A stretch of 17,998 nt of DNA, from positions 1 through 17,998 of the forward strand of contig CAYHAA010000027.1 of the NCBI GenBank assembly GCA_964354495.1, in the 5' to 3' direction. Below the pieces are notes generated by a model. The model was given only the letters and a program-made list of their open reading frames with translations. It was not told the origin of the DNA and ran no database searches. The stretch is from an uncultured archaeon (GTDB taxonomy: Archaea; Asgardarchaeota; Thorarchaeia; Thorarchaeales; Thorarchaeaceae). Positions 7,255 to 8,928 of this stretch are shown in pieces. How positions within the stretch are numbered: the stretch's first letter is position 1; every line of letters begins with the position of its first letter. The translations under genes were made by a program, and so were the position numbers.

Positions 7255-8928
7255 TCATTGAGAGGCACTCCCTCCGATGGACCTGACTTCTTTCTCCTGC
7301 TGCAATGCTGGCGCATCATCTCCAGCGGCAGAGAGGATCTCCACAGTTCTTTCCACGGCATGGTCATCATCACTCGTCTCGGCTCCATCACTGAAGCTGA
7401 GAAGGCTCATCTGAGCAGTGTGAATCACCGCGGACTCTCCAGAGCCTGATGCACGGCTCGTTGAAGAGAGTAAGGACTTCCCGCGAGAAGGTCTCTTCCC
7501 TTGGGCCTTAGGTTGTGGGCTCTGTGCCCGTTGAACGGCAGAGTCCCACTTCCCTTGTCCTCTCACAGAGTGTAGTGACTTTGTGAGCGTAACTAGACGG
7601 GCTGCGATGTTTATCGCCCCGTTCATGTCTGCGTTGCACTTGTTCCCGCATGTGGGACAGACAAAGAGGCTCTGTCTTGGTCTGGCTCCCTTTCGACCGC
7701 ATTTCCAGCACATGATGGAAGTCCAGTTCTCAGGTACGACTCGAAATCTGGAATTTCTCCCCTCGACAGACCACCCGAGCTGGGCGAGGTTGTGGCTGAG
7801 GGACTTTGTTATCCTTGAGAATGCCCAAGAATGGATCATCCCTCTAAGGAAAGAGCCCTGATAGTTTCCCTTTCGTGCCAGTTGCCGAATATTCTTGAGC
7901 CGCCCAATCGCAGCAAACAGCGTGTATCTCTCGGAGACCTCAGTGATGTAGTCAAGGATCTGATGCACAAGAACACGGTCGTACTCCTTGGCTACATTCT
8001 CTCGTTTGTGCCTGAGTCCTTTCAACTTAGAAACGACTTGGTCATATCTCGCATCTCTGTTCTTTCTGAGATCAAGTTCTCTCTGAAGACTTGCCACCTT
8101 CCTGTCGAGAACCTTGATTCGTTCTATCTTTTCTTCCTGTCTGAAGAAACGAGTCTCACGGACCCGTTCAGGAGTCAGGAGCGAGACACAGGCAGCCTTC
8201 TCGATTCCCAGGTCAATGCCAATGATTGCGGGAGGGAGGGTCTCAGAGACCTCAGGCACATCGACACTCACTGCGAAGGTGATCCACCACTTCCGCGAGT
8301 CATCAGTGAATATCTGGAGGGCCTTGATCTCTCCGCGAGAGAACTGATTGAGATGAAAGGGGGAGACCTTCAGAGGGATGACTAACCTGTCATGGACCCT
8401 ATTTCCCTTTGTGGCAGAGTCCAGCGCATCCCTGATGTTGACCCACCATCTCGCAACCGAGGTCGGTCTTTCAACCAGACTGAAACGCTGGGTAAATACC
8501 CATCTCGGTATTCGCCTTGAGGATGAAACTCTCGTTGGGTGTGAGGCCACTCTTCCCTTGAGCTTCCTCAGCTTGAGATAACTCTCGTACTGAGAGACTG
8601 CGGTCTTTCGACACTCAGCCATCTCGTTCTGGGACATTCTAGGGAACCTCACTTTGAGGTCATGCGGGACGCTGGGTCTCTGTTGATAGCCCGCCCTCAC
8701 CTTGAGGGCAGTCATTGTCAGCTGGTCGAGTTTTCCGTCACTGATTCTGTCCCTGTTCTTTCCTGTGAGCAACGCATCTTCATGTCTCTCAATGACTCCA
8801 AGGAACGCACGAATGACTCGGGTGTCTCTGCCAACAGTCTGCCGAAGCCTCTGTTGTTTCCTCTCTGTCATGACCTCCCAGTTGATTGGGACCTTGACCG
8901 AGACTGTGACATCTTTAGACCGAGCCAT
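7255..8928 (-). CDS. tnpB: TnpB-family RNA-guided endonuclease with rearranged RuvC-II
   Basis: RuvC-I IIGID239LG; RuvC-II site AAIG342RL (G replaces E); VPE400NWTS; zinc finger C407/C410/C424/C427; RuvC-III NAD434MNGAINI; about 110-aa low-complexity tail. Confidence 0.92.
   Translation of the reverse strand: MARSKDVTVSVKVPINWEVMTERKQQRLRQTVGRDTRVIRAFLGVIERHEDALLTGKNRDRISDGKLDQLTMTALKVRAGYQQRPSVPHDLKVRFPRMSQNEMAECRKTAVSQYESYLKLRKLKGRVASHPTRVSSSRRIPRWVFTQRFSLVERPTSVARWWVNIRDALDSATKGNRVHDRLVIPLKVSPFHLNQFSRGEIKALQIFTDDSRKWWITFAVSVDVPEVSETLPPAIIGIDLGIEKAACVSLLTPERVRETRFFRQEEKIERIKVLDRKVASLQRELDLRKNRDARYDQVVSKLKGLRHKRENVAKEYDRVLVHQILDYITEVSERYTLFAAIGRLKNIRQLARKGNYQGSFLRGMIHSWAFSRITKSLSHNLAQLGWSVEGRNSRFRVVPENWTSIMCWKCGRKGARPRQSLFVCPTCGNKCNADMNGAINIAARLVTLTKSLHSVRGQGKWDSAVQRAQSPQPKAQGKRPSRGKSLLSSTSRASGSGESAVIHTAQMSLLSFSDGAETSDDDHAVERTVEILSAAGDDAPALQQEKEVRSIGGSASQ

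Follow-up and report, generated by a model that had tools for sequence, protein, structure and literature searches.

The DNA considered here (hereafter, the window) is a stretch of 17,998 nucleotides (nt) of contig CAYHAA010000027.1 (GenBank assembly GCA_964354495.1; positions 1 to 17,998, forward strand) from an uncultured Asgard archaeon of the family Thorarchaeaceae. Two divergently oriented genes occupy its middle part: tnpB on the minus strand (7255..8928), encoding a protein of 557 amino acids (aa), and, on the plus strand (9185..14290), a gene for a giant partner protein of 1701 aa harboring a Cas1-like helical domain (residues 3–253) and a P-loop ATPase (approximately residues 590–890). 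The tnpB end of the pair abuts an intact tRNA-Gly(TCC) gene (7054..7128, plus strand). Since the 3' half of this tRNA recurs just past the end of the partner gene, the pair can be delimited as a two-gene element of about 7.2 kb bounded by direct repeats of 46–54 nt. The tnpB gene is the right half of this element, which belongs to an already described kind, the Asgard aCas1-TnpB elements. According to the preferred interpretation, to which we assign a probability of roughly 0.78, a TnpB with a rearranged RuvC-II site and an omega RNA of about 440 nt form one half of an aCas1-TnpB element lodged at tRNA-Gly, and the element would home by cleavage.

An earlier note, made from the sequence alone, had called the interval 7255–8928 a TnpB gene. 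The call is correct, but the note overlooked that the gene resides on the minus strand, is overlapped by an omega RNA and is a member of an aCas1-TnpB element. The plus-strand translation of the interval contains stops throughout; the open reading frame (ORF) of 557 codons is that of the minus strand. The ORF matches Pfam PF07282 (Cas12f1-like TNB domain) at 6.5e-12 and reaches 94 bits with the NCBIfam model guided_TnpB, whose cutoff is 100; a sequence search of the PDB with it returned TnpB and Cas12f chains, the canonical “hhhEdL” RuvC-II motif of which aligns with AAIGRL of the window protein. All further elements of the active site can be located on the same strand. The RuvC-I aspartate is D239 (codon 8212..8214; motif IIGIDLG, that is, D-hydrophobic-G and not DPG), the position of the canonical RuvC-II glutamate is taken by G342 (7903..7905; AAIGRL), an alternative glutamate, E400 (7729..7731; VVPENWTS), follows 58 residues downstream, and the RuvC-III aspartate is D434 (7627..7629; NADMNG, with the NADMN motif). 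Six residues separate E400 from C407 (E400-x6-C407), the first cysteine of a C4 zinc finger (C407/C410/C424/C427, with CxxC pairs 407/410 and 424/427; 7648..7710) recognized from residue positions, Pfam and the alignment. The residue numbers and spacing given in the earlier note are exact.

Relatives of this TnpB were retrieved from 1.8 billion cluster representatives, which were searched exhaustively and yielded 1115 matches, the best 150 of them listed; 43 close relatives and 53 remote representatives, with identity down to 21%, were combined into an alignment of 96 sequences. D239, E400 and D434 are kept in 95 of the 96 sequences and G342 in 94, with the zinc finger in a similar range (94–96); T403, S404, C410 and C424 are invariant, and L240 of the DLG motif is kept in at least 90%. 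The sole sequence with the canonical arrangement (P0358) displays a reciprocal swap, with Glu at 342 (IENLKGIR) and Pro at 400 (DPRGTS). Such conservation implies that the residue pattern is real and under selection rather than a product of chance. Judging from the alignment, the combination of Gly with a relocated Glu is the norm around the TnpB of the window and not its peculiarity: nearly all relatives among the matches listed carry it.

The model generated by AlphaFold2 on the 96-sequence alignment (predicted local distance difference test, pLDDT, 79.7; predicted template modeling score, pTM, 0.73) features a WED-REC-RuvC fold, well folded over residues 4–470, whereas residues 472–557 have a pLDDT below 35. 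In its secondary structure, G342 ends the strand 336–343 and E400 comes right after the strand 395–399. These positions agree with the relocation of the catalytic Glu from beta-4 to beta-5 documented for the RIIr-5 clade of TnpBs by Altae-Tran et al. (2023, PMC10691335), who list rearranged RuvC-II sites in two major TnpB clades and in eight large branches. Likewise, Fanzors and some TnpBs (the “TnpB2” group, to which TvTnpB of T. volcanium belongs) have Pro or Gly instead of the RuvC-II Glu, along with an alternative Glu; TvTnpB cleaves at an NTGAC target-adjacent motif, and the mutation E467A abolishes the activity of ApmFanzor (Jiang et al. 2023, PMC10530073). Hence, the statement that a Gly/Pro swap with a relocated Glu marks Fanzors and some active TnpBs is in line with both reports. 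Residue conservation and the model together predict a catalytic triad of D239, E400 and D434, in which E400 stands in for the canonical Glu at G342. By analogy, the window TnpB is probably an active RNA-guided nuclease of the rearranged RuvC-II type (TnpB2 or RIIr), a fair expectation because the same arrangement is active in TvTnpB and Fanzor. The likeness to TvTnpB extends to the Gly at the canonical Glu site, the alternative Glu before the zinc finger and the RuvC-III NADxN motif; the latter protein, however, is encoded by an IS605 element alongside a Y1 TnpA, whereas the window TnpB is larger (557 aa), has a Cas1-like giant partner and is a nuclease by prediction.

A Foldseek search with the model ranked AsCas12f first (1.4e-16), followed by the TnpBs of ISFba1 (1.6e-14) and ISDra2 (1.4e-12). 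The best fold matches (1e-16 to 1e-12; PDB 8h1j, 8iaz and 8j12) thus come from Cas12f and the ISDra2/ISFba1 TnpBs, which also share an omega or guide RNA encoded at and past the 3' end of the gene; they differ in having the canonical RuvC-II Glu, in residing in Y1 TnpA elements or next to CRISPR arrays and in their much shorter scaffold RNAs. In the same search, a mimivirus Fanzor2 took the 19th place (3e-11), and no Fanzor1 appeared among the top 50.

The earlier note had seen in this gene a bearing on the origin of Fanzors; such a reading would put the Asgard TnpB in or close to the ancestry of the eukaryotic enzymes. The host is indeed an Asgard archaeon, the mimivirus Fanzor2 can be detected among the relatives of the protein, and an alternative Glu six residues before the zinc finger is common to the window TnpB and the Fanzors (ApmFanzor2, PDB 9b0l; PMC10711439), as is the overall TnpB fold. 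Still, two marks define the Fanzor lineage, DPG in RuvC-I and the alternative Glu, and the published tree derives this lineage from cyanobacterial IS607 TnpBs (Yoon et al. 2023, PMC10711439). The window protein has IDLG in place of the near-universal DPG. It is encoded by a prokaryote, not by a eukaryotic, viral or cyanobacterial host with an IS607 recombinase or a eukaryotic transposase: the element holds tnpB and the Cas1-like gene only, and no IS607 transposase (recombinase) gene is present in it. Both sequence and fold place Cas12f and TnpB well above Fanzor2, and the alternative Glu occurs in whole major TnpB clades of prokaryotes besides the relatives listed. Moreover, in the 121 Asgard genomes searched, full-length, tail-bearing relatives were found in the taxonomic family of the window only (12 of its 17 genomes, 1–11 matches each), while three other families contain relatives of about 500 aa, with 32–40% identity and without the tail. 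Since the rearranged active site is ordinary for the clade, the locus does not open the question of Fanzor origin; a special tie of its TnpB to the eukaryotic Fanzors is not supported, and a place near their root appears very improbable.

The tail of TnpB deserves separate consideration, as does the RNA encoded by the same DNA. DNA similarity between the copies of the element is unusually high over the last ca. 110 codons and ca. 95 nt past the stop. Over residues 1–445, the third codon positions differ 2–3 times more (0.47–0.59 per pair) than the first and second ones (0.15–0.33), which indicates purifying selection on the protein core; over residues 446–557, all three codon positions vary alike (0.21–0.29). 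Along with the disorder of this region in the model, the equal variation indicates that the C-terminal tail is essentially the translation of an RNA gene. Accordingly, the remark in the earlier note that the protein has a long N-terminal region holds in part. RuvC-I does start as late as residue 239, and the WED and REC parts are modeled with a pLDDT above 85, but much of the “extra” length is due to the disordered C-terminal tail of about 90–110 residues, i.e., to the translated omega RNA gene. These ca. 110 RNA-constrained codons call for caution when TnpB length and “C-terminal domains” are annotated.

The predicted omega RNA scaffold (7136..7590, minus strand) overlaps codons ca. 446–557 and runs about 118 nt beyond the stop. 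For 21 copies (window positions 7147–7590, minus strand), RNAalifold returned a consensus structure of 105 pairs with 46 compensatory double changes and an energy of -95.2 kcal/mol. Column shuffles of the same alignment gave -17.5 +/- 4.0, so that the observed value lies about 19 standard deviations below them, with 6.7 compensatory pairs on average and 13 at maximum; slid partners had 9–16 compensatory pairs, and the antisense strand reached -47.3. The covariation pattern therefore predicts that tnpB shares its strand with a structured omega RNA of some 440 nt, which overlaps the last ca. 110 codons of the gene.

The core of the scaffold ends with GGAACACAGAAGT (7168-7180, minus strand) and is followed by a terminal region which includes the motif GTTCACTCA (7148..7156, minus strand, starting 99 nt after the tnpB stop codon) and the end box GGTCTA (7136-7141, minus strand). 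In the published description of aCas1-TnpB loci, tnpB is located beside a diverged Cas1, with flanking repeats and, downstream, a variable segment followed by GTTCACTCA; the variable segment was proposed as the guide (Altae-Tran et al. 2023, PMC10691335). In most of the 23 copies inspected here (17 by the exact pattern; in one of these, the motif is found only farther away), GTTCACTCA lies 98–112 nt past the stop; a given 9-mer would occur by chance within 130 nt with a probability of about 5e-4. At the same time, the “hypervariable” segment after the core pairs in most copies with the sequence beyond GTTCACTCA into a covarying terminal hairpin, which is weak in the tRNA-Gly sub-lineage. A conserved AGGTCA or GGTCTA box comes after this hairpin, and the copies diverge past the box. 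The guide most likely corresponds to the sequence just past GGTCTA; in the window, the presumed guide would be made of the first bases past the box (7113..7135, minus strand), antisense to the trailer and 3' end of tRNA-Gly.

Contigs assembled from RNA libraries of soil and sediment (runs of two studies) cover 7113–7549 at 98–99% identity, which attests to presence only. One such contig (7113–7266, one mismatch) bridges the end of the element into the antisense of the tRNA 3' end. The coincidence of contig ends at 7548/7549 in the two studies was considered as a candidate 5' end of the omega RNA and discarded: a block of more than 31 nt nearly identical in the paralogs begins at this point, so the shared ends are best explained by a branch point of the assembly, and no 5' end is claimed. 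The absence of RNA contigs over most of the coding sequence (three runs) was not used as evidence. Additional 3'-end fragments consisting of the omega RNA end and GTTCACTCA occur in tandem, alone or beside full copies (G000 C43:4979-5899; L014 at 8783 and 8898; L016 at 14430-14714); they may be remnants of the ends of successive insertions or else guide-like arrays of small size.

The partner gene adjoins a tnpB homologue divergently in four copies of the same genome and in eight loci of other Thorarchaeota, its product being 24% to 91% identical across these loci. The AlphaFold2 model of residues 1–900 (pLDDT 84.8, pTM 0.84) contains, at residues 590–890, a domain matching ATPases of the RecA/DnaB/KaiC type, in which the Walker A (SSGKS) and Walker B (IVVDGW) motifs can be recognized; approximately 800 C-terminal residues have an unknown fold. 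In an unbiased structural scan, residues 3–253 matched exclusively the catalytic domains of the Cas1 family: ten Cas1 and casposase entries with Z scores of 9.6–12.8, e.g., 8flj_A (Z 12.8; root-mean-square deviation 4.0 Å over 177 residues), 4n06_B (12.4) and the casposase 6opm_A (10.9). In a weak profile alignment, the Cas1 catalytic motifs line up with the invariant residues E73, N111/N115, H185, D192/D195 and R198 of the partner. Sequence-level searches were silent: Pfam assigns no family to the partner, the Cas1 family (PF01867) matches neither the partner nor the rest of this genome, and PDB sequence and profile searches, NCBIfam, PADLOC and the ESM Atlas gave no match to it. The Cas1-containing ORFs of about 1329 aa known from other Asgard genomes were also compared and set aside, being not homologous to the partner and having no adjacent TnpB. 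Taken together, the gene pairing, the motif and the fold identify the partner as the “aCas1” of the published aCas1-TnpB loci; it is presumed to be an integrase. The Cas1-like helical domain is situated at the extreme N-terminus, without the usual Cas1 beta domain, and a possible PD-(D/E)xK motif (GKIDLVLF...ILEVKTK) can be discerned at residues ca. 396–423.

In comparison with the published aCas1-TnpB loci (Cas1H-Asgard-1 and -2; PMC10691335), the window element has no defining difference: the host group, the diverged Cas1 neighbor, the repeats and the variable segment with GTTCACTCA are the same. What can be added to their description is the covarying omega RNA of about 440 nt, the RNA-constrained tail, the reading of the variable segment as a hairpin arm, the tRNA-Gly site and the inverted box upstream of tnpB (see below).

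The insertion site is well defined. Copy 1 of the direct repeat (7083..7136) comprises the 3' half of tRNA-Gly, from the anticodon loop to CCA, and the trailer; copy 2 (14290..14343), 83–87% identical to it, is an orphan tRNA-Gly 3' half immediately adjoining the partner's stop codon. The corresponding repeat of the orthologue L011 measures 60 nt. Six relatives from the sub-lineage of the window copy are found at tRNA-Gly(TCC) with the same junction, viz. L011, L062–L065 (TnpB 72–89% identical) and the deletion derivative L028. Since these relatives share the junction and L063 shares also the downstream EMG1 gene, the window copy has been inherited vertically. In other paralog lineages, the element adjoins tRNA-Arg or pieces of further tRNAs. 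In L014 and L017, a whole tRNA gene, apparently intron-bearing, is located just past the partner stop; because the reverse complement of the first 14 nt of that tRNA follows the AGGTCA box, the geometry there is inverted and not direct.

A partial parallel is offered by casposons, which likewise have a Cas1-fold integrase (the candidate here being matched by 6opm_A), insert into the 3' part of tRNA genes and duplicate the target. Unlike them, the window element lacks a PolB gene, contains TnpB and is flanked by repeats of 46–54 nt instead of ca. 15 nt; in contrast to the casposase, the partner has no N-terminal beta domain of the Cas1 type and continues into an ATPase and other domains. Casposases choose tRNA ends without any RNA, which speaks against another possibility, namely that TnpB and the omega RNA, beyond protecting the element, pick the tRNA target for the Cas1-like partner, so that integration itself would be RNA-guided as in CRISPR-associated transposons. 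The strict pairing of tnpB with the Cas1-like, ATPase-bearing giant protein and the invariable contact of the right end with tRNA-derived sequence are compatible with such a division of labor. Two elements, those of the window and L028, share the tRNA-Gly junction although their partners are only 37% identical, with the omega RNA at 76% against a background of 66–70%. The comparisons of this sort are, however, very few, and one of them points the other way: L012 and L027 have omega RNAs 83% identical but different flanks. Besides, target choice alone needs no intact nuclease triad. Guided integration is hence considered improbable.

The two halves of the element do not diverge in step. TnpB identity to the window copy stays flat at 61–67%, whereas partner identity ranges from 24% to 73% (L012/L027, L028/window and L014/L017); in the pair L012/L027, the partners are only 26% identical. 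This decoupling of TnpB and omega RNA from the partner suggests exchange of modules (cassettes) or recombination. A more far-reaching view, in which the element would be a natural RNA-guided Cas1-family integration system for tRNA genes, with a presumed guide copied from tRNA sequence and an exchangeable TnpB/omega module, is regarded by us as speculative, with a low probability of the same order as that of guided integration.

A further set of signals is present upstream of tnpB. The conserved block at 8945..8991 (minus strand), whose end is some 20 nt away from the ATG, consists of GGGGAGTGAACTC, a hairpin CTGACC...GGTCAG and a TATA-like box. In GGGGAGTGAACTC, the GTTCACTC box of the 3' side recurs in inverted orientation, between two TATA-like boxes 35–65 nt upstream of the tnpB start; the inverted box itself is ca. 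50–65 nt upstream. The upstream copy of GTTCACTC covaries with the “variable” 3' segment after the omega RNA core, and the same layout recurs in 12 other copies. A promoter-proximal box of this kind is compatible with a reading in which TnpB would be catalytically silent or binding-only (TldR- or Cas12k-like) and serve as an RNA-guided regulator, e.g., of its own promoter; the long residence of the copy at one site would fit this role as well. Several findings argue against it. The acidic triad and the zinc finger persist in 94–95 of the 96 sequences, with no TldR-like loss of residues, and the published inactivated TnpBs are without these residues (PMC10691335); the numerous decayed fragments and 1–11 copies per genome are those expected of a mobile element. 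Most copies, furthermore, have a 1-nt indel between the two boxes, which is ill-suited to an R-loop. A silent regulator is, therefore, held to be quite unlikely, slightly more so than RNA-guided integration.

The same 1-nt indel led to rejection of a further reading, in which the variable segment preceding GTTCACTCA would be a guide directed against the upstream inverted box; because of it, the segment and the box more likely represent inverted repeats or protein sites. The upstream box may delimit a tnpB-only cassette, as its terminal inverted repeat, or else function as an operator.

Returning to the cleaving nuclease of the aCas1-TnpB element, its operation can be envisaged as follows. The guide would be the antisense of the tRNA-Gly(TCC) trailer and 3' end situated just past the GGTCTA box. 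By analogy with the TnpBs of IS200/IS605 elements, the TnpB ribonucleoprotein would cut those tRNA-Gly sites which are empty of the element, and recombination after the cut may restore or spread the latter; the Cas1-like, RecA-like giant protein would act as the presumed integrase. Three points weigh against this scheme. Firstly, the start of the guide is uncertain: the segment before GTTCACTCA proposed by Altae-Tran et al. reads here, on covariation, as an arm of a hairpin in most copies, and weakly so in the tRNA-Gly sub-lineage to which the window copy belongs. Secondly, the Cas1 label of the partner comes from its fold and the line-up of motifs, while hhalign against the Asgard Cas1 alignment gave a probability of 0.55% with an E value of 0.11. 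Thirdly, this genome contains no near-identical second copy (the best paralog is 64% identical), so recent mobility is not demonstrated. The genome (3.3 Mb, 51 contigs) encodes about six full-length TnpB paralogs with 47–64% identity, along with several fragments comprising the 3' end only.

Asgard aCas1-TnpB elements have so far been described from computation only. The window copy represents a clean test case, combining an intact 557-aa nuclease, an omega RNA of about 440 nt, a tRNA-Gly site and an intact 1701-aa partner; it bears on a possible cooperation between Cas1-family integrases and TnpB, the start of the guide and the role of the GTTCACTCA box.

The remaining features of the window concern its host and minor ORFs. 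The ORFs at 6824-7258 and 8949-9236 (both minus strand) were taken as spurious; the former runs antisense to the tRNA and into the tail of the omega RNA, with which it overlaps. The probable Asgard host suggested by the earlier note is borne out by relatives named Thorarchaeota and by a nearby gene for a topoisomerase IB of the eukaryotic type. This gene (15073-17151, plus strand; Pfam Topoisom_I_N, Topoisom_I and Topo_C_assoc) is found beside those for EMG1/Nep1, Rpr2, eIF6, L31e and S19e, a neighborhood which fits an Asgard host. Finally, a tetratricopeptide repeat (TPR)-like ORF of 94 aa (14287-14571, minus strand) runs into the orphan tRNA-Gly half; hence, its last ca. 18 codons are tRNA-derived, and the insertion may have altered the C-terminus of its product.

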